This document shows, one piece after another, positions 5,401-30,877 of a DNA stretch of 59,780 bases. This DNA comes from Limisphaerales bacterium (lineage in GTDB: Bacteria > Verrucomicrobiota > Verrucomicrobiia > Limisphaerales > CAIMTB01), in the NCBI GenBank assembly GCA_046155815.1, contig JBJXFY010000021.1, forward strand, positions 1 to 59,780. Direction: 5' to 3'. Positions within the stretch are counted from its first letter, which is position 1, and each line of letters opens with the position of its first letter. The notes beneath the pieces are model-generated. The model made no database searches, was not told where the DNA came from, and saw nothing but the letters and a program-made list of their open reading frames with translations. The position numbers were made by a program, and so were the translations under genes.

Positions 5401-6921
5401 ATGCCGCGCCCGGCCACCAGCCAGTGGGAGTTCGGCGACCTGTTCTCCGGCGCGCGCCCGGCGGAGCCCGCGGCTCCGGCGCCCGCGGCGCGCACCCTGT
5501 TCTCCGTCACGGAGATCACCCGGCAGGTGAAGGGCCTGCTCGAGGGCCGCTTCGGCGACGTATGGATCACGGGCGAGATCACCAACCTCCGCTCCCAGCC
5601 CTCGGGCCATGCCTATTTCACCCTCAAGGACGCCGCCGCGCAGCTCGCCTGCGTGCTCTTCCGCGGCGTCACGGGCGTCGCGCGGGGGCTGCTGCAGGAC
5701 GGCGCCTGCGTGAACCTCGGCGGGGAACTCACCGTGTACGAGGCCCGCGGGCAGTATCAGCTCCTCGTCCGCGCGGTGGAGGCCCGGGGCGAGGGCGCGC
5801 TCATGGCGGCCTTCGAGCGGCTGAAGCGCCGGCTGGAGGCGGAGGGCCTCTTCCGGCCGGAGCGCAAGCGTCCGCTGCCGCGCTTCCCCCGCTGCGTCGG
5901 CCTCGTCACCTCGCCCGCAGGCGCCGCGCTGCGCGACGTGCTTTCCGTCGTCCGCCGCCGTCATCCGGGCCTCGAACTGATCCTCGCCCCTTGCCGCGTC
6001 CAGGGCGCCGGTGCCGCGGAGGAGATCGCGGCGGCCATCCGGCGGCTCAACGCCTACGCTGTGGCGGAGAGGGAAATGGAGGAAGAGGCGCGGACGGGAA
6101 AAGGAGCCGAGGGGCGGTTTGGCGGGGGTTCGATCTCCTTTTCCCCTTCTCCCCTTTTCCCCCGTTCCACGTCCATCCCCGAGGCCATCCTTGTAACCCG
6201 CGGCGGCGGGAGCCTCGAGGACCTGTGGGCCTTCAACGAGGAGACCGTGGCCCGTGCCATCGCGGAGTCGGCCCTCCCGGTCGTCTCGGCCGTGGGGCAC
6301 GAGATTGACTTCACGATCAGCGACTTCACCGCCGACCTGCGCGCCGCCACGCCCAGCGCCGCCGCCGAACTGCTCACCGCCGGCTACGTCGCCGCGCGCG
6401 GGACGCTGGCCGATGACGTGACCCGGTTGCGGCGCGCCATGGCCGGCCGGCTCGCCGCGCTGACCCGGGACGTCGGCGGCCCCACGCAGCGCCTCGAACG
6501 ACGCCATCCGCGCCGCCAGCTTGCCGAACGCGCCCAGCGCCTCGACGAAGCCCGCGAACGCCTCGCCCGCGCCACCGCCGGCGGGCTCCGCGGCCGCCGC
6601 GTGTCGGCCGGCGAATTCGCCCGCCGCCTCGCGCGCCTGCGGCCGGGGCTGCGCCTCGCAAAGCTCCGCGATGAACTCACACGCCGCCTCGGCGAGTTCA
6701 ACCCGCTGGCCGCGCGCGGGGTGGCCGCGCGCCGCGAGCGCCTCGCCGTCGCCGAGGCCCGCCTGCGCCTGCTTTCGCCCGACGCCGTCCTCGCCCGCGG
6801 CTACTCGATTACCCTGGAAGCCGACAGCGGCCGCGTGCTGCGCGACGCGCGGGAAGTACCGGCCGGCTCGAACCTCCGCACCCGCCTCGCCCGCGGAGAG
6901 GTCCGCAGCCGGGCGGAGTGA
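5401..6921 (+). CDS. xseA: exodeoxyribonuclease VII large subunit
   Basis: ORF 5401..6921. Shows the OB-fold start SVTEITRQVKGLLEGRFGDVWITGEITNLRSQPSGHAYFTLKD, then VTRGGGSLEDLWAFNEE...VSAVGHEIDFTISDFTADLRAATPSAAAE. Carries an extra ~40 aa before the RGGGS motif (see the repeat at 6061..6180). Confidence 0.9.
   Translation: MPRPATSQWEFGDLFSGARPAEPAAPAPAARTLFSVTEITRQVKGLLEGRFGDVWITGEITNLRSQPSGHAYFTLKDAAAQLACVLFRGVTGVARGLLQDGACVNLGGELTVYEARGQYQLLVRAVEARGEGALMAAFERLKRRLEAEGLFRPERKRPLPRFPRCVGLVTSPAGAALRDVLSVVRRRHPGLELILAPCRVQGAGAAEEIAAAIRRLNAYAVAEREMEEEARTGKGAEGRFGGGSISFSPSPLFPRSTSIPEAILVTRGGGSLEDLWAFNEETVARAIAESALPVVSAVGHEIDFTISDFTADLRAATPSAAAELLTAGYVAARGTLADDVTRLRRAMAGRLAALTRDVGGPTQRLERRHPRRQLAERAQRLDEARERLARATAGGLRGRRVSAGEFARRLARLRPGLRLAKLRDELTRRLGEFNPLAARGVAARRERLAVAEARLRLLSPDAVLARGYSITLEADSGRVLRDAREVPAGSNLRTRLARGEVRSRAE
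6061..6180. repeat. purine-rich/pyrimidine-rich palindromic insert inside xseA (in frame, ~120 nt)
   Basis: GGGAAAAGGAG (6096..6106) is the exact reverse complement of CTCCTTTTCCC (6135..6145). It is flanked by GAGAGGGAAATGGAGGAAGAGG on the left and CCCCTTCTCCCCTTTTCCCCC on the right. Encodes VAEREMEEEARTGKGAEGRFGGGSISFSPSPLFPRSTSIP, which E. coli XseA (recalled from memory) lacks between the ...ANQRNEC and DVLIVGRGGGS segments. Confidence 0.6.
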
Positions 6922-7017: not shown

Positions 7018-8100
7018 ATGCAAGTCACTGAAAACCTGCGCGTCGTCAACCTGGCGCGGCTGATCACGCCGCGCCTGCTCAAGGACCGCGTCCCGTCCCC
7101 GCCCGCCGCACTGCGGACCGTCATCACCGGCCGCGCCACCGTCGAGCGCATCCTGCGCGGCGACGACCCGCGCCTGCTCGTCGTCGTCGGGCCGTGCTCG
7201 ATCCACGACGTGCGCAGCGCCTGCGAGTACGCCGGGCGCCTCGCCGCGCTGCGCGGCGAGCTCGGCGACCGCCTCGAACTGGTGATGCGCGTTTACTTCG
7301 AGAAGCCCCGGACCATCGTCGGCTGGAAGGGCCTCATCAACGACCCGCACCTCAACGGCTCCTACGACATCGAGACCGGCCTCGGGCGTGCGCGGGAAAT
7401 CCTGCTGCACGCCAACGGGCTGGGCCTGCCCGCCGCCACCGAGTTTCTGGACCCCATCGTGCCGCAGTACATCGCGGACCTGGTGACGTGGGCCGCCATC
7501 GGCGCGCGCACCACGGAGTCTCAGACGCACCGCCAGATGGCCAGTGGCCTCTCGATGCCCGTGGGCTTCAAGAACGGCACGGACGGCAGCCTCCAGATCG
7601 CGCTCGACGCCATGCTCGCCGCGCGGCACCCGCACTGTTTCCTCGGCATTGACGAGGACGGCTTCACCAGCGTGGTCCGCACCGCGGGCAACCCCTGCGG
7701 CCACGTCGTGCTGCGCGGCGGCAAGGCCGGCACGAACTACGACCGGGAAAGCATCGCCGCCGCCGTGGCCGGGCTCGAGGCCGCCCGGCTTCCGCGCGGG
7801 CTGATGGTGGACTGCAGCCACGCGAACTCGGCCAAGCAGCATCTCCGGCAGGAGGAGGTCTGGCATTCGGTCATCGCCCAGCGCGTCGCGGGCAACACCG
7901 CCCTGATCGGCATGATGGTGGAAAGCCACCTCCACGAGGGCAGCCAGCCCGCCGGCGATCCCGCGACGCTCCGCCACGGCGTGTCCATCACCGACGCCTG
8001 CCTCGGCTGGGAGACCACGGAACGGATGCTCCGCCACGCACATCGCGAGCTGGGCGGGAGTGTCGCGGCTGAACCGGCAGTGAAGCTTGTGGCGGCATGA
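7018..8100 (+). CDS. aroG: 3-deoxy-7-phosphoheptulonate (DAHP) synthase, class I
   Basis: ORF 7018..8100. Contains [12 protein letters not shown]...[19 protein letters not shown]...[29 protein letters not shown]...DCSHANS. The isozyme (F/G/H) cannot be assigned. Confidence 0.9.
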
Positions 8101-8123
8101 GAACCGTCGCGCCGGACGGGGTG

Positions 8124-8235
8124 GGAAATTCCAAGCCCCAAGCTTTAAGTTCCACGGGCCAAACCCTGCTGCTGCGTGCGCCTTGGAGCTTGGGGTTGGG
8201 AGCTTTCTTGGAGCTTGGAACCTGGTCCTTGGATT
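8124..8235. repeat. REP-like element: imperfect inverted repeat TCCAAGCCCCAAGCT / AGCTTGGGGTTGGGA plus direct repeat TTGGAGCTTGG x2
   Basis: Inverted arms at 8130..8144 and 8187..8201 (13/15 complementary). TTGGAGCTTGG occurs at 8183..8193 and 8208..8218. Fills the DAHP synthase-hisF spacer. Confidence 0.6.
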
Positions 8236-8242
8236 TTTCCTG

Positions 8243-9019
8243 ATGCTCGCCAAACGCCTCATCCCCTGCCTCGACGTGCATGACGGGCACGTCACGCGCG
8301 GCGCGCAGTTCGGCCGCGCTGAGGCCGGCGGCCTGCGCAACGTGGGCGACCCGGTCGCCCTGGCCATGCGTTACAACGAGCAGGGAGCGGACGAGCTGGT
8401 TTTCTACGACATCACCGCCAGCGCGCACGGCCGCGCGACGATGGTGGACGTGATCGAGCGCACCGCCTCGGAGTGCTTCATGCCGCTCACCGTGGGCGGC
8501 GGCCTCCGCAGCGTGGAGGACATGTACGCCATGCTTCGCGCCGGCGCGGACAAGGTGAGCCTCAACTCCTCCGCGCTGAGGACGCCGGACCTGATCCGCG
8601 CCGGGGCGGAGAAGTTCGGCAGCCAGTGCATCGTGGTCTCGCTGGACGTGAAGCGCGTCGCGCCGGACCGCTGGGAGGTCTTCGCGAAGGGCGGCCGCGA
8701 GGCCACGGGCCGCGAGGCGCTGGCGTGGGCGCGGGAGGCCGTGGCGCTCGGGGCCGGGGAGATCGTGCTGAACAGCATGGACGCGGACGGCATGAAGACC
8801 GGGTACGACCTCGAGATCACGCGGCGCGTGAGCGACGCCGTGCCCGTGCCGGTGGTGGCCAGCGGCGGCGCCGGCGCGCTCGAGCACCTGGCCGACGTGC
8901 TGACGCTTGGCCACGCGGACGCCGCGCTGGCCGCGAGCATCTTCCACTACGGCACGTTCACGATTCCGCAGGCGAAGGAGTTCCTCGCCGCGCGCGGCGT
9001 GGCGGTGCGGCCGGTTTGA
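8243..9019 (+). CDS. hisF: imidazole glycerol phosphate synthase cyclase subunit
   Basis: ORF 8087..9019. ATG at 8243 gives [20 protein letters not shown]...[12 protein letters not shown]...GGGLRS...VVASGGAG, the HisF pattern. The upstream part of the ORF is the REP-like spacer. Confidence 0.9.
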
Positions 9020-27249: not shown

Positions 27250-28176
27250 GTGAACCGGCTGCGCATCCTCCTCCTGGCGGCCGGCATTTCATGCTGCGGC
27301 TGGCCGGGCGGATTGTTCGCCCAGCCGGTTCCGGTGCCGAACGGCTCCTTCGAGCTTCCGGCCACGCAGTTTGTGGATACACGGATGGACGCCTGGCAGG
27401 AGGCCCCCAAGCCGCCGGAATTTGACGAAGGCGGCGGCTTCCTCTGGGACCAGCTCACGGGCGTGTTCCGCAACACCCCGCCCGGATCACCCGACCACAT
27501 TGACAACTGCGACGGCCTCCAGGCCGCGTATTTCTTCGCCGTGCCCGGTGTCGGCTTCTTTCAGGATTACGACTCGGTGGACTGGAACGATCCGGAGCCT
27601 TCCCGCGCCTTCGACGCCCGGTTTGAGGCCGGCAAGTCCTACACGCTGACCTTCGGTGTCGTGGCCGGGGGCGGAAACATGCTGGAGGGCGTGTCCTTCG
27701 AGGCCGCGCTGTACTACCGCGACGGCAGCGGGACGAACCAGGCGGTCGTGTCGGCCACCAATGTAGTCTTCACCCGCGCCGCGTTCCCGACGCGCACCAC
27801 GCTGACGGAGGTCACGTTGCGGACGCCGTTCGTGCGGGCCGGAGATCCGTGGGCCGGACGGCACATCGGCATCCGCTTCCTGTCTACCGTCAGCGACGGG
27901 ATGAAGGGGGGCTACTGGGATCTGGACCACCTCCGCCTGGTCGCGGAGGGACCGGGCGAGATCACGCTCCGGACCGGGGTGATGGACGGCAAGCTGCAGG
28001 TGCGGTGGCCCTCGGTGGCCGGGTACCGGTACCAGCTTGAGCGCTCCACCGGGCTCGACACGTGGTCAGAGGAAGGCGCGGCGCAGCCGGGCACGGGCGG
28101 TGCGCTGGCGGCCGAGGTTCCGCTGGCCGGGCCGCCGCCGGCGTTCTTCCGCGTGCTCGCCACGCCGGGTACTTGA
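27250..28176 (+). CDS. secreted paralog of the preceding gene, with a C-terminal YxLE...W...FFRV module instead of PEP-CTERM
   Basis: 3' part of ORF 26275..28176. In-frame GTG at 27250 gives [37 protein letters not shown]. Collinear with the previous protein (DAWQEAPKP.., ..[32 protein letters not shown] versus ..GDAWAGKNIGVRLLAT..TAYWEADNVRVTAVPEP). Ends [25 protein letters not shown]...[12 protein letters not shown]. Confidence 0.7.
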
Positions 28177-28217
28177 GCTTCTGGCGCGTGGCCGGGAATG
28201 GGCGACATTGTCGGCGC

Positions 28218-29003
28218 ATGCGTGAGCCGCACCGCCGCCGCGGGGCCTTCACCCTCGTCGAGCTGCTCGTCGTGATCGCCATCGTGGCGCTGCTGGCGAG
28301 CCTGCTGCTGCCGGCGCTGGGCGCGGCCAAGGAAATGGGGCGCAGGGCGGCGTGCCTGTCCAACCTCCGGCAGGTCGGCCTCGCCATCCACACCTACGCC
28401 GGCGACTCGGACGGCCACATTCCCTACGGCCCGAAGGCGCCGCCTTTCACCAGCCCCGCCGAGCTGTATCCGGCCACCGGCACACCCACCAGCCTGCTCT
28501 CGCTGCGCAGCGGCGCGCCCGCAGGTCTCGGCCTGCTGCTGAAGGGGCACCTCGCGGCGCAGCCCCGCGTGCTCTTCTGCCCGGGCAGCGACCAGCCGCT
28601 GGACGCGCAGAAGGAACTGGCCAAGGTGGGCACCAATCAGGCGCAGGGCAGCTACTACTACCGGCATGGCGGCAAGACGGGACTCTTCGACGATCCGGCC
28701 GACACCGGGGCTCCGCGGAACATCCGGCTCGACGCGCTGGGCGAGAACCGCGCCGGGCTGCCCATCCGGGCGCTGGTCATGGACGCCAACTTCCTCTGCC
28801 CGCCGGACCTCGCCGCGTTCAACGTCCGGCCGCGCACGCACCACCGGCAGAAATTCGCCAACCTCCTCTTCTCGGACGGTCATGTGGAATCGCGCCGCAA
28901 CCTCGACTCGCGCTACACGGTGGACGTACGCGACTACGCGGAGATCCGGAACTCCTTTGACCGCATCCTGCGCGTGTTCGAGCTCGCGGACGCGGAACCG
29001 TGA
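28218..29003 (+). CDS. prepilin-type N-terminal cleavage/methylation domain protein (H-X9-DG type pseudopilin-like)
   Basis: ORF 28062..29003. ATG at 28218 gives [55 protein letters not shown]-terminal [17 protein letters not shown] matches the H-X9-DG motif. Confidence 0.85.
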
Positions 29004-29063: not shown

Positions 29064-30413
29064 TCAAGGCGGCGGCTTCAGGCGGCCCACGACCCCTGAC
29101 GCCGATTCAGGCGAGATCGCCAGCCGGTAAAACGCGGGCGCCGCGGGAGGTGGCACATCGCCATGGACTTCCGGGCCGGGCGCGGCGGGAACCCTGCTTG
29201 AGATGAGGGACCAATTCATCAGGTCCGGCGTCCGCTCGACCGCGTAACGCCAGCCCGGCGCGGCGTTCCAGCGCAGGCGCGGGATCGCGGGCCGGCCCTC
29301 GAGGGTGAGCGTGAGTTCCGGCCAACCGGGCTCGGCGCTCCACACCGAAAAATCATGAAACACGCCACGCGCCCGGATGGAACCGCCGAACGGAGGAGCC
29401 TGCCCGGCATCGCTGTAACTCGCGATGGCGAACGCGTCCACGAGGAAGTCCTCGCCCGCCGGGAGCACGACATCGGCAATCTCGCCGGCCGGCGAGGTCC
29501 GCGTGCGCAACGTGCGCGTGGCGGCCGAGTAGCGCAGGGAAACGGAGTAGGTCCGGCCCGGTGTGAGTTCCTCGGGAAACGCGAAGGCCGGGAAGAAACG
29601 GCCCGCCTGCGAGACGATCACGGGGGAGATCGTCGCGCCGAATCCCGTGTCGGGAAACCAGTTCCACTCGACGAGGTTTGGCGAGGCCGTGGCCGTGCCG
29701 CGCAGGAAGCCGGGCGCGTCGGCCTCCGCCCGGCGCTGGAGGCCGAAGGCGATCTGGAACGGTCCCGGCCGGCCGGGATGCACGCCGCCGGACGCCAAAA
29801 TCAGGGTGAAGCTGGCCGTGAGCTGGAAATCATTCGTAGCGGTCAACGGCCGGGGCAGCGGGCGGCGGAAGTAGCTGTTCATGTTGCTCGAGTTCCAGGT
29901 CACTTCCAGATGGCCTGCGGCCGGCTGCCAGATGACAAAGTTGGTCTCGCCGGTGGCTTCCCAGCCCTGGGTGAACGGGTCGGTGCCGAAGGATTCCTCC
30001 CACCCAACGGAAGTCTGGGCGTGAGTCACCGGGACCAGAATGAGGAGGACAAGCGTGATCAGGAGTGTCTTCCAGGGGCAGTGTCGGCAGCCGGACTCGC
30101 AGCACCGGCCGCGGCGGAGCAGATAACGCACGGAGAAGACGAAGCGCCGGTCCGGATCAAGGTAGAAGTCGCGGCCGGCGACGGGCGGCGCGTCCGGGCC
30201 GAGTTCGAGGGCTTCAAGGCAGCGGCGGCAGAGACACCGGCCGCGGGCGTGCTCGGGCAGGTGGCGGAGGCGTTCGGCGGGAAGGGTCAATTCGCCGCAC
30301 CAGCACGGGCCCTTGTGCAGGCTGGTGCTGGCGAGCTGGCAACGGTTGGCTTCGCCGCAGATGGGACACTCGGCGGCACAGGCCCCGGTGCACGGGGCGA
30401 CATCTTGGTTCAT
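29064..30413 (-). CDS. fusion protein: Cys-rich CWC domain + DUF5522-like CCxxGCRHCP domain + TM/signal-like segment + exported domain + C-terminal YxVE...W...FYRL module
   Basis: ORF 29064..30650(-), ATG at 30413 (MNQDVAPCTGACAAECPICGEANRCQLASTSLHKGPCWCGE...CLCRRCLE). Then DFYLDPDRRFVFSVRYLLRRGRCCESGCRHCPW, directly followed in frame by KTLLITLVLLILVPVTHAQT and a ~240-aa domain. Ends LRWNAAPGWRYAVERTPDLMNWS...PAFYRLAISPE. Confidence 0.65.
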   Translation of the reverse strand: MNQDVAPCTGACAAECPICGEANRCQLASTSLHKGPCWCGELTLPAERLRHLPEHARGRCLCRRCLEALELGPDAPPVAGRDFYLDPDRRFVFSVRYLLRRGRCCESGCRHCPWKTLLITLVLLILVPVTHAQTSVGWEESFGTDPFTQGWEATGETNFVIWQPAAGHLEVTWNSSNMNSYFRRPLPRPLTATNDFQLTASFTLILASGGVHPGRPGPFQIAFGLQRRAEADAPGFLRGTATASPNLVEWNWFPDTGFGATISPVIVSQAGRFFPAFAFPEELTPGRTYSVSLRYSAATRTLRTRTSPAGEIADVVLPAGEDFLVDAFAIASYSDAGQAPPFGGSIRARGVFHDFSVWSAEPGWPELTLTLEGRPAIPRLRWNAAPGWRYAVERTPDLMNWSLISSRVPAAPGPEVHGDVPPPAAPAFYRLAISPESASGVVGRLKPPP

Positions 30414-30877
30414 GGACTCGCAACGGTCCGGGCGCACGCCGGCGTGGCGCTGCGAGACCAGGGAATCCGCACGGCCTGCGCCCGCGGTTGCCCGGCCGTG
30501 CGCGGCCCGGGCTGGCCTCATCCCGCCCTGCAACGGGGCGGCCCCGGCCCATCCGGGCCGGGCTGACGAGTCCTGCGCCGCCGGCATCCTGACTGCGGGC
30601 CTCCGCCCCCGCTTCCGCCTTCCCGGCCGCACGGACAGTGACTCGTGCAAGTTTGCAGCCCGTCACAGCGGCGTCACCGCCCCCGGTTCTCGCGGGGTTC
30701 CCCGACACGGCACAGGTTCCCGCCGGCAGCAGCGGCCGGCGGGGTCAAAGAACGGGCCGAGTGTGAGTCAGGCTGTGGTCTGGCCAAGCAGAAACCACGC
30801 GCCGCCCCGGCCATCGTCCCGCGGGACGGCCGCCCCGACCCGTTGCATTCGCGGCATCCGCAGATACGGTGCCGTCC

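Follow-up and report, generated by a model that had tools for sequence, protein, structure and literature searches.

Organization of the locus

The window, by which we mean the whole 59,780-nucleotide stretch of DNA that was analysed, carries a gene whose 449-residue product comprises, in this order, a Cys_rich_CWC domain, a DUF5522 domain, one hydrophobic segment and a predicted exported part of ~315 residues; we refer to the first two domains as the head and to the exported part as the tail (Table 1). The gene is flanked by a divergent gene for an Mpa-type AAA ATPase and by a convergent gene for a DUF1559 protein (28062-29003). Its start codon occupies the same position as in four homologues (P0003-P0006) and in the homologous locus L003. 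The frame stays open upstream as far as a TTG at 30650; since an extension to that codon overlaps the riboswitch described below, we regard it as a shadow ORF.

Table 1. Features of the fusion gene and its upstream region, in the direction of transcription.
Feature	Position	Strand	Basis or details
Cobalamin (B12) riboswitch aptamer, predicted	30583-30702	minus	RF00174, core variant, model positions 46-168
Leader (expression platform), aptamer to start codon	30414-30582	minus	GC-rich, hairpin-forming repeats
Fusion CDS	29064-30413	minus	449 aa; ATG at 30413; stop codon 29064-29066
Cys_rich_CWC domain, residues 16-67	30213-30368	minus	Pfam PF14375
DUF5522 domain, residues 76-115	30069-30188	minus	Pfam PF17653
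Single hydrophobic segment KTLLITLVLLILVPVTHA, residues 115-132	30018-30071	minus	Hydropathy, charge asymmetry, alignment
Exported jelly-roll domain (predicted), about residues 133-365	29319-30017	minus	AlphaFold2 model, Foldseek
C-terminal beta-sandwich module, ~75 aa, ...GWRYxVE...W...FYRL	29100-29318	minus	Model and conservation
Disordered last 11 residues	29067-29099	minus	pLDDT < 50

The head combines two cysteine-rich domains

Within the head, the Pfam models of both domains score above their cut-offs: Cys_rich_CWC (PF14375) reaches 41.5 bits against a cut-off of 24 (E 1.7e-10), with the full model (1-50) covered, and DUF5522 (PF17653) reaches 54.6 bits against 25 (E 1.2e-14). A profile search of the genome to which the window belongs gave 46 bits for Cys_rich_CWC and 58.3 bits for DUF5522, and returned the fusion as the sole copy of each. 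The original prediction had assigned the two domains from their residue patterns, and both assignments hold. All signature cysteines of the CWC domain are present (C16, C19, C25, C37, C39, C60, C62 and C65) and, like the signatures C16-P-I-C19-G, C37-W-C39 and C60-L-C62-R-R-C65 that contain most of them, are kept across 28 aligned heads; the DUF5522 motif CCxxGCxxCP[WFY] appears as C104-C105-E-S-G-C109-R-H-C112-P. All 14 cysteines of the protein fall within the head and none within the tail.

In its scores against both HMMs and its complete set of signature cysteines, the head resembles stand-alone PF14375 and PF17653 proteins, but it differs from them in that the two domains are joined to one another and, further, to a transmembrane or signal segment and an exported part of ~315 residues. 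The earlier view that both families normally occur as small stand-alone proteins needs some qualification, as related operons already join the two domains in one protein of ~115-130 residues. Word-based searches with the head gave almost no matches, and a structural model of it (pLDDT 80.7) had no PDB match better than E 1.4 in Foldseek; neither a regulator domain nor a DNA- or RNA-binding fold was found at this level. A literature search for a function of DUF5522 or Cys_rich_CWC returned nothing.

A predicted former signal peptide joins the head to the tail

Inspection of the region between head and tail shows that the junction reads CRHCPW(114)-K(115)TLLITLVLLILVPVTHA(132)-Q(133)TSVGW. As noted originally, the codon for W114 is TGG (30072..30074), and neither a stop codon nor an ATG, GTG or TTG occurs between C112 and V129; the only GTG of the junction region encodes V129 itself, four codons before the predicted cleavage site. 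Residues 115-132 form the only hydrophobic segment of the protein (mean Kyte-Doolittle value 2.31 over 17 residues), flanked on the N-terminal side by four K/R and on the C-terminal side by three D/E and no K/R. The features of a Sec-type signal are therefore all in place, namely a positive N-terminal side, an 18-residue hydrophobic core and small residues at -3 and -1, and a signal-peptidase I site is predicted between THA and QT. The small residues at -3/-1 recur in all fused homologues (ARA, TYA, ARA and TFA), and in an alignment the segment coincides with the signal peptides at the N-termini of unfused tails, in agreement with the first description of it as signal-peptide-like. By alignment and composition, the segment is best read as a former signal peptide, which would now serve either as a signal-anchor or as an internal cleavable signal, with cleavage inferred from the site. 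Export of the head together with the tail by a Tat 'hitch-hiker' mechanism was considered and discarded, as the signal peptides of the tails carry no consistent twin-arginine motif.

The tail is predicted to adopt a lectin-like jelly-roll fold

The exported part had been described as one domain of ~240 residues that ends in a YxVE...W...FYRL module. An AlphaFold2 model of the tail (mean pLDDT 92.4, pTM 0.85) instead divides it into two, a jelly roll of ~230 residues and a β-sandwich of ~75 residues, the strands of which lie at model positions 235-302. The module is indeed found at the C-terminus, and across 78 sequences its W, Y, L, W, D, Y and R hardly vary. It also recurs on other secreted proteins of the window, with a weak match only.

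The top Foldseek matches of the jelly roll are legume lectins (E 1.6e-8, probability 1.00), with TM-scores of 0.55-0.62 when normalised to the target and 0.45 when normalised to the query, an rmsd of ~6 Å and 12-16% identity. In the model, residues ~133-365 thus form a concanavalin A/legume-lectin-like jelly roll. The tail shares this general fold with legume (L-type) lectins but not membership of their sequence family: no credible Pfam match was obtained for any of 78 tail members, Lectin_L-type_dom gave a weak match in one of the 78 (E 0.059), and a tail profile run against the PDB reached peanut lectin at E 0.59 only. No evidence of lectin Ca/Mn or sugar-binding sites was seen in the tail, and DUF4465 had no match at E up to 1 in the 78 sequences.

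The fusion is conserved and arose repeatedly

The proposal that the two parts are encoded by a gene fusion is borne out by comparison with homologues. The same in-frame junction is present in P0003-P0006, metagenomic homologues that come from other samples and are 57-63% identical, in which CPW[KRL] is followed by a hydrophobic segment and A-x-A, with differing codons at the join (WK, WR, WL); one of the four, P0005, was seen on 8 contigs. When the arrangement of head and tail was counted in the 80 best related genomic loci, the head adjoined the tail on the same strand in 24, with the head first in 13, the tail first in 8 and the two fused in frame in 3. Every one of the 21 unfused pairs has a 4-nt overlap (NTGA), in which the upstream TGA is combined with ATG (11 pairs), GTG (7) or TTG (3), indicating that head and tail are translationally coupled. 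A base other than C is expected before TGA by chance in roughly two thirds of cases, and the weight of this observation consequently lies on the constant -1 frame offset, the lack of any spacer in all 21 pairs and the use of ATG in 11.

The ancestral arrangement of two genes with an NTGA overlap, and the fact that TGG differs by a single base from TGA as well as from ATG, could be taken to mean that head and tail are translated separately here too, or that an assembly or sequencing artefact hides an ATGA-type stop/start at 30069-30074. Restoring NTGA would, however, require a change of frame, as the tails of unfused pairs are read in the -1 frame relative to their heads and the two share one frame here; moreover, four homologues of independent samples have the in-frame junction with different codons, and no ATG, GTG or TTG is available that would leave a signal peptide. 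We consider such a reading very unlikely, and the conserved junction, the common frame and the lack of a start codon led us to reject a sequencing error or a cryptic start as the main explanation. Two genes with a cryptic start, the alternative originally offered, misfit this genome, given that the junction has no usable start codon, but do describe the ancestral state, as seen in the 21 loci with the 4-nt overlap. Homologues with two separate genes, which had been named as grounds for refuting the fusion, likewise exist, but only at a distance (the same 21 loci), P0003-P0006 being fused; this distribution marks a Rosetta-stone fusion and not an artefact.

On a tree of the tails, the clade of the window is sister to nine loci with the head before the tail, and the fused state requires at least three changes, two of which are forced by strongly supported branches. 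The sequences thus indicate at least two or three origins of the fusion, with the head always N-terminal to the export signal. P0029, P0030, P0031 and P0033 are further, independently fused clusters, listed from a head profile with three full-length rows in which head and tail matches are mixed. The CWC domain alone is fused to the tail in P0073 and L056, and is joined to the N-terminal end of the pseudopilin's prepilin leader in P0123, L082, L086 and L087. No fusion in the opposite order, tail before head, was seen among the related loci and clusters. Fusions that recur in one direction argue for a cytoplasmic site of action of the head and an extracytoplasmic one of the tail.

In the lineage of the window, a deletion across the 4-nt overlap would have joined head and tail. 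Such an event would be topologically harmless, since the head stays cytoplasmic by the positive-inside rule and the tail is still exported; the product may be a bitopic N-in/C-out protein, or a precursor that is cut between THA and Q and leaves the head on a membrane stub. The head might also be imagined as a cleavable cytoplasmic leader, a pro-domain or reporter whose processing by signal peptidase I or prepilin peptidase yields, in the cytoplasm, a signal or cofactor carrier in stoichiometric proportion to the exported envelope component. It would then make sense that the head always precedes an export signal, be it of Sec type in the tail fusions or a prepilin leader in the pseudopilins, that small -3/-1 residues are kept after the hydrophobic segment in all fused forms, and that the head is translationally coupled to an exported protein in unfused operons. 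Topology alone, however, predicts the same pattern, since only head-first fusions keep the head cytoplasmic, and the head yielded no regulator or nucleic acid-binding fold; we find a leader role improbable.

A cobalamin riboswitch is predicted to control the fusion gene

On the sense strand, 170 nt upstream of the start codon, a covariance model search identified a cobalamin riboswitch: RF00174 matches with 36.9 bits (E 1.1e-6), where the gathering score is 31.5. Its B12 box, AGTCAGGATGCCGGC, is intact. The element fits only the core of the model, as in several relatives, and scores lower than the 57-86 bits of most relatives; the homologous leader of L003, which has RF00174 at 71.9 bits, is 87% identical to the window leader over ~360 nt, far above the identity of the proteins. 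A search of the leader between aptamer and start codon found no canonical T-run terminator. The fusion gene is, on this basis, predicted to be controlled by a cobalamin riboswitch. Riboswitches of this class repress genes for B12 uptake, scavenging and biosynthesis, as well as B12-independent isozymes. The riboswitch and the operon context, neither of which was picked up in the original prediction, carry most of the functional information on the locus.

Relatives share a predicted B12-responsive envelope operon

Examination of related loci shows that RF00174 lies upstream of the tail operon, on the same strand, in 67 of 75; four of the eight loci without it have less than 700 nt of contig upstream. 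Typically, the riboswitch is followed by genes for a secreted PEP-CTERM protein, the tail and a specific DUF1559 pseudopilin, with the head, when present, directly before or after the tail. Among the 80 best related loci, the operon-specific pseudopilin is found downstream of the tail in 65 and a PEP-CTERM-family gene upstream of it in 48. Clustering of the ORFs of related loci placed neither btuB nor btuFCD among the conserved operon genes, and returned no other recurring neighbour family, sigma-factor genes included. From these sequence comparisons, we conclude that the loci represent an undescribed, predicted B12-responsive envelope operon found widely across this order of Verrucomicrobiota. 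One subfamily of DUF1559 (H-X9-DG prepilin-type) proteins regularly accompanies the tail on its downstream side and is sometimes fused to CWC, as noted above, but the fusion protein of the window is itself no pseudopilin. A literature search for a link between cobalamin riboswitches and DUF1559 found nothing.

The genome of the window has only two cobalamin riboswitches, the second of which precedes a PEP-CTERM-family gene and the orthologous pseudopilin on another contig (C31). The operon is hence split here into two riboswitch units, head-tail in the window and PEP-CTERM protein plus pseudopilin on C31. The convergent DUF1559 gene beside the fusion was considered as the operon pseudopilin and set aside; it has only generic motifs in common with the C31 partner and is a generic paralogue. 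Three proteins with B12-binding domains are encoded in the genome; in its 94%-complete, 457-contig assembly, CbiC and CobS were not detected, and FecCD had no match above cut-off, giving a sub-cut-off match only.

Most tail operons function without any head, which indicates that the system can dispense with it, and DUF5522 was absent from 12 of 12 genomes that have the tail operon without an adjacent head. The stand-alone DUF5522 homologue P0028 adjoins genes for a HAD hydrolase and IMP dehydrogenase, a context without a B12 link, so that a B12 link of DUF5522 is shown for the tail operon only.

The regulatory context also bears on the proposed analogy to anti-sigma factors, in which a regulator would be held by a zinc-binding head and set free once the outer domain detects a ligand. 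The architecture does fit: membrane-bound members of the ZAS group (RsrA, ChrR, RslA type) likewise have a Cys-rich cytoplasmic N-terminus, a transmembrane helix and an outer domain. Unlike them, however, the window protein lacks any zf-HC2/ZAS match at E up to 1 as well as the HxxxCxxC motif (its head has H-x3-C-x-C and H-x4-C-x-C instead), and no sigma-factor gene lies adjacent, the neighbours being the Mpa-type ATPase and DUF1559 genes; none was found among the called genes of L003 either. Regulation, moreover, would already be supplied by the riboswitch, and head and tail of most relatives cannot signal across the membrane, being separate soluble and secreted proteins. We therefore abandon the analogy, and find it hard to assign such signalling any appreciable probability.

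Comparison with known B12-binding surface proteins

BtuG, BtuH and BtuJ1/BtuJ2 (the latter being DUF4465), accessory B12-binding proteins known from Bacteroides and other phyla, are secreted or exposed at the surface of B12 auxotrophs, and their genes lie downstream of cobalamin riboswitches. Secreted β-jellyroll DUF4465/BtuJ proteins under B12 riboswitches bind B12; DUF4465 has an augmented β-jellyroll fold and includes a verrucomicrobial member, D5EK51 of Coraliomargarita (10.1101/2025.08.21.671476). The tail resembles BtuJ in being a riboswitch-controlled, secreted jelly roll, although by its model the fold class is common to both in general terms only. Unlike BtuG, BtuH and BtuJ, it has no DUF4465 match and no lipobox, and it is partnered by a PEP-CTERM protein, a pseudopilin and a cytoplasmic protein rich in cysteines. 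An assignment of the tail to DUF4465 or another known B12 binder was rejected for want of any Pfam or sequence relation.

This absence of a sequence link to known B12 binders, together with carbohydrate-binding legume lectins as the best structural matches and operon partners of PEP-CTERM surface protein and pseudopilin type, would also suit an adhesin or lectin that is induced when B12 is scarce. The tail would in that case bind a glycan, a display of lectin-like and pilin-like proteins would attach the cell to B12 producers or particles, and the head would be co-regulated but unrelated. The structural match, however, covers the general fold only, and the metal- and sugar-binding residues of lectins were not identified in the tail; the accessory proteins of riboswitch-controlled B12 loci described in 10.1101/2025.08.21.671476, moreover, all bind B12 directly, and an adhesin does not explain why a Cys-rich cytoplasmic protein should be so strictly coupled to it. 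We judge an adhesin unlikely.

Interpretation and implications

The locus is a genuine fusion gene that probably unites a membrane-tethered, cytoplasmic Cys-rich partner with the periplasmic component of a B12-scavenging system, the function being read from the regulation only. We infer the link of either tail or head to corrinoids solely from regulation and gene neighbourhood. The gene would encode a cytoplasmic, metal-binding head with 12-14 cysteines, followed by the former Sec signal peptide, the lectin-like jelly roll and the small β-sandwich. The operon would be switched on when B12 is scarce and would act in corrinoid capture or uptake at the envelope, with the tail as a periplasmic or surface component and the head as an accessory Zn- or Fe-S-binding partner at the cytoplasmic face of the inner membrane.

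A more tentative extension of this scavenging model, which we regard as possible but doubtful, is that the four modules (PEP-CTERM surface protein, tail of lectin fold, specific DUF1559 pseudopilin and CWC-DUF5522 head) constitute an as yet undescribed B12 uptake route that replaces BtuFCD in B12-auxotrophic Verrucomicrobiota, in which corrinoid is caught outside, passed along a pseudopilus-type apparatus and received or processed by the head. If so, the head would process the corrinoid at the inner membrane face, for example by reduction or decyanation through cysteine-metal chemistry, and the fusion would link periplasmic binder and cytoplasmic acceptor in one polypeptide.

CWC and DUF5522 are widespread families without known function, and the DUF1559 expansions of Planctomycetota and Verrucomicrobiota are unexplained. 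The two riboswitch units described here make up the whole detectable B12-riboswitch regulon of this genome, in which no corrinoid synthesis genes and no clear BtuC-type permease were detected. The findings raise the questions of whether the tail binds cobamides, whether the head is a metal or Fe-S protein that acts on corrinoids, and whether pseudopilins take part in vitamin uptake. The locus and its relatives place CWC, DUF5522, a DUF1559 pseudopilin and a new lectin-fold family together in one predicted, ligand-defined regulon.

A conserved in-frame fusion

The original prediction placed Cys-rich domains in frame with a signal-peptide-like segment and an exported part, and this architecture is borne out by the open reading frame, by Pfam and by the junction sequence (...CRHCPW114-K115TLLITLVLLILVPVTHA132-Q133TSVGW). 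Cys_rich_CWC covers residues 16-67 (41.5 bits) and DUF5522 residues 76-115 (54.6 bits), each above its curated cut-off; the N-terminal head (residues 1-114) is a member of PF14375 and PF17653 because the defining HMM and motif are found for both, and an NCBIfam search with the 449-aa protein gave no match. As also predicted, a TGG codon precedes KTLL (W114, 30072-30074) and the junction lacks a start codon, ATG, GTG and TTG all being absent between C112 and V129. The frame stays open further 5', up to TTG 30650, through a stretch that is riboswitch; homologues begin at the position equivalent to ATG 30413.

Features of the fusion locus and of the second riboswitch unit in the same genome assembly (G000)
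Feature	Position	Strand	Remarks
Fusion CDS	ATG 30413 to stop 29064-29066	minus	449 aa
Cobalamin riboswitch aptamer RF00174	30583-30702	minus	Rfam; 170 nt upstream of start codon
C-terminal module	29100-29318	minus	fusion gene; modelled at high confidence
C-terminal module	27958-28173	plus	other window gene
Second cobalamin riboswitch	G000 contig C31:14858-15054	minus	59.6 bits
PEP-CTERM-family secreted protein gene and orthologous DUF1559 pseudopilin gene	L106 (locus on C31) 7035-8818	minus	after C31 riboswitch; 4-nt overlap

Four homologous proteins from other metagenomic samples (P0003-P0006; 439-463 aa, 57-63% identity) share both Pfam domains and the direct junction (CPWK/SLVV..ARA-QT, CPWR/PLLL..TYA-QT, CPWL/SLFI..ARA-QT and CPWR/ALVL..TFA-QT). 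P0005 is present on eight contigs, and in its locus, as in the window, the neighbor is a divergent Mpa-type ATPase belonging to the UBact-proteasome cluster. The window's genome holds a single match to CWC and a single match to DUF5522, both within the fusion ORF. On this comparative evidence we regard the fusion as real rather than an error. A base-call error as its origin is ruled out, because unfused head and tail (the exported part, from residue 133) are separate genes that do not share a frame; an artefact, or a cryptic start inside the ORF, is very improbable.

Descent from a coupled gene pair

A search for the exported part across one genome per prokaryotic species returned 282 relatives, the best 80 of which, nearly all from Verrucomicrobiota MAGs (Limisphaerales, Pedosphaera and similar), were analyzed as loci by separate tblastn queries with head and tail; the tail occurs in 148 of 201 sampled genomes of the window's order. 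Of the 80 loci, 24 have head and tail side by side on one strand, as head followed by tail in 13 (overlapping start: 7 ATG, 3 GTG, 3 TTG), as tail followed by head in eight (4 ATG, 4 GTG) and fused in frame in three (L038, L040 and L056). Where the head comes first, the start codon of the tail's signal peptide overlaps the head's TGA and the tail invariably takes the -1 frame relative to the head; where the tail comes first, the same 4-nt overlap joins the head's start to the tail's TGA. Chance alone will often place a non-C base before TGA; the case for translational coupling is that all 21 pairs have zero spacing, that the frame offset never varies and that 11 of the 21 use ATG. Maximum-likelihood analysis of 78 tails groups the window with its relative L003 in a clade (SH-aLRT 99) that is sister to nine head-first loci (SH-aLRT 84), and the fused state requires at least three changes, of which strongly supported branches force two. 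The comparison shows that the fusion gene descends from a translationally coupled gene pair.

At three tail-first loci (L017, L031 and L063) the CWC half of the head is lost or degraded and DUF5522 alone is kept, indicating that each of the two Cys-rich modules can be kept or lost without the other.

A predicted cytoplasmic head and exported tail

The sole hydrophobic segment (residues 115-132) has four K/R immediately on its N-terminal side and no K/R but three D/E on its C-terminal side, an asymmetry that by the positive-inside rule predicts a cytoplasmic head, with the remainder outside. The head contains all 14 cysteines and the tail lacks any; the conserved 12, of which CWC has eight and DUF5522 four (CCxxGCxxCP), could supply three Cys4 zinc sites or Fe-S clusters. 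A head model (pLDDT 80.7) resembled no solved structure in Foldseek (best E 1.4), and we found no literature mentioning DUF5522 or Cys_rich_CWC. The anti-sigma analogy first proposed for this architecture did not hold: both the ZAS motif and a sigma-factor neighbor were sought and are absent, which rejects a ZAS anti-sigma factor and leaves anti-sigma-like signaling the least probable reading considered.

In a phylum-wide sample of 301 genomes DUF5522 was found in only 2, and it is absent from all 12 tested genomes whose tail operon lacks an adjacent head. When present, the head sits within the operon, of which it is an accessory part; elsewhere DUF5522 can occupy unrelated contexts (for example P0028), and only within this operon is the head shown to be linked to B12.

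A scan of 1.8 billion cluster representatives yielded further fused clusters with differing linkers (P0029, P0030, P0031 and P0033) and one, P0073, in which CWC alone precedes a transmembrane segment and the tail; L056 is a second CWC-only fusion. Separately, CWC without DUF5522 is fused in frame, N-terminal to a prepilin leader and DUF1559 pseudopilin, in L082 (1776-2741), L086 (5008-5994), L087 (4939-5883) and P0123, the pseudopilin being the one that comes after the tail; the Cys-rich 'leader' of ~85 aa, unusually long, precedes the AFTLIELLVV cleavage/methylation motif. In P0012-P0025 (554-571 aa), and at loci L032, L033, L041, L048, L061 and L065, a single long secreted protein combines a PEP-CTERM-family N-terminal domain with the tail domain, a second Rosetta-stone link inside the same operon.

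Every head fusion found has the head N-terminal to the export signal, and none runs tail-head, an order that does occur among the separate genes. Topology offers the simplest explanation, since only a head-first fusion keeps the head cytoplasmic with its partner still exported; the pattern is consistent, if indirect, evidence for a head acting inside the cell and a tail acting outside. The fused protein may be bitopic (N-in/C-out) or cut at THA-Q with the head left on a membrane stub, and in either form the head would be tethered to the inner face of the membrane. That the head instead has its own role as a cleavable leader domain is quite unlikely.

A cobalamin riboswitch operon

The original prediction mentioned no regulatory element, and a cobalamin riboswitch lies upstream of the fusion gene. 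Its score is modest (36.9 bits, with the gathering score at 31.5; E 1.1e-6) and it aligns to the core of the RF00174 model (positions 46-168), like several relatives; the whole leader is 87% identical to that of L003, whereas the proteins are only ~59% identical. Most of the 465-nt spacer (30414-30877) between the divergent Mpa-type ATPase gene and the fusion gene is riboswitch and leader of the latter, on the other strand.

In 67 of 75 related loci the tail operon is preceded on its own strand by RF00174, mostly at 57-86 bits, and four of the eight loci without it (L024, L035, L042 and L050) have less than 700 nt of upstream contig. The usual order is riboswitch, a ~280-aa secreted protein with a PEP-CTERM end, tail with the head optionally before or after it, and a specific DUF1559/N_methyl pseudopilin. 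Of the 80 loci, 65 have the pseudopilin downstream of the tail on its strand (62 of the 73 with enough contig after the tail), and 48 have a PEP-CTERM-family gene upstream of the tail. The fusion gene is single, conserved, provided with a riboswitch leader and part of this operon; that it is a real riboswitch-controlled fusion belonging there is very likely.

Several neighboring elements were also seen. L028, one of the few tail genes without an upstream cobalamin riboswitch, has a SAM riboswitch downstream (6771-6887, plus strand, 78.5 bits), and in the L022 MAG five Acido-Lenti-1 motifs (RF01687, 38-51 bits; 116-1112, both strands, within 1 kb) stand upstream of the riboswitch operon. A DUF1559/N_methyl pseudopilin-like gene (28062-29003, plus strand) converges on the fusion gene, their stop codons 60 nt apart; it was rejected as the operon pseudopilin, being a generic paralogue in which only the N-terminal generic and H-X9-DG motifs align.

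Only two cobalamin riboswitches occur in the window's genome. Behind the second, on contig C31, lie a PEP-CTERM-family gene and the pseudopilin gene, the missing partners of the fusion gene; the canonical operon is therefore split here into two riboswitch units, which together are the entire detectable B12-riboswitch regulon. Three B12-binding-domain proteins were found, and neither CbiC, CobS nor, above cut-off, a FecCD/BtuC permease was found in this assembly, a draft MAG (94% complete, 457 contigs) in which absences are weak evidence. The profile weakly suggests a B12 user obliged to import complete cobamides and fits a cobamide auxotroph that does without the canonical B12 ABC importer of the inner membrane.

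A lectin-like fold and a possible role in corrinoid capture

An AlphaFold2 model of the tail built on 78 sequences is all-beta (pLDDT 92.4, pTM 0.85), and legume lectins are its top ~40 PDB matches in Foldseek (E 1.6e-8, probability 1.00; target-normalized TM 0.55-0.62, identity 12-16%), so the tail is modeled as a jelly roll of the concanavalin A type with a small beta-sandwich after it. No Pfam family, DUF4465 included, was credibly matched by any of the 78 members, and a profile search of PDB sequences reached only E 0.59 (peanut lectin). Membership of DUF4465 and of the L-type lectin sequence family was rejected; the tail has the general jelly-roll fold alone in common with either. A B12-scarcity-induced adhesin or lectin is unlikely. 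The C-terminal beta-sandwich module (~70 aa; GWxYxLE...W...FYRV) also ends several otherwise unrelated secreted proteins of the window and may act in their sorting, anchoring or oligomerization.

From what is known of cobalamin riboswitches, expression of the operon and fusion gene would rise when B12 is scarce, and the products may serve corrinoid acquisition or handling. A function in corrinoid capture or uptake is somewhat favored, and the combined reading, a riboswitch-controlled operon fusion serving that function, is likely. The nearest published parallel is the riboswitch-controlled accessory B12 binders of Bacteroides, whose DUF4465/BtuJ members are secreted beta-jellyrolls, with a verrucomicrobial representative among them (10.1101/2025.08.21.671476); we found no literature connecting cobalamin riboswitches with DUF1559 proteins. 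The locus would be of the riboswitch-controlled B12-scavenging type, assembled from wholly different parts, and what this particular fusion contributes is topological information.
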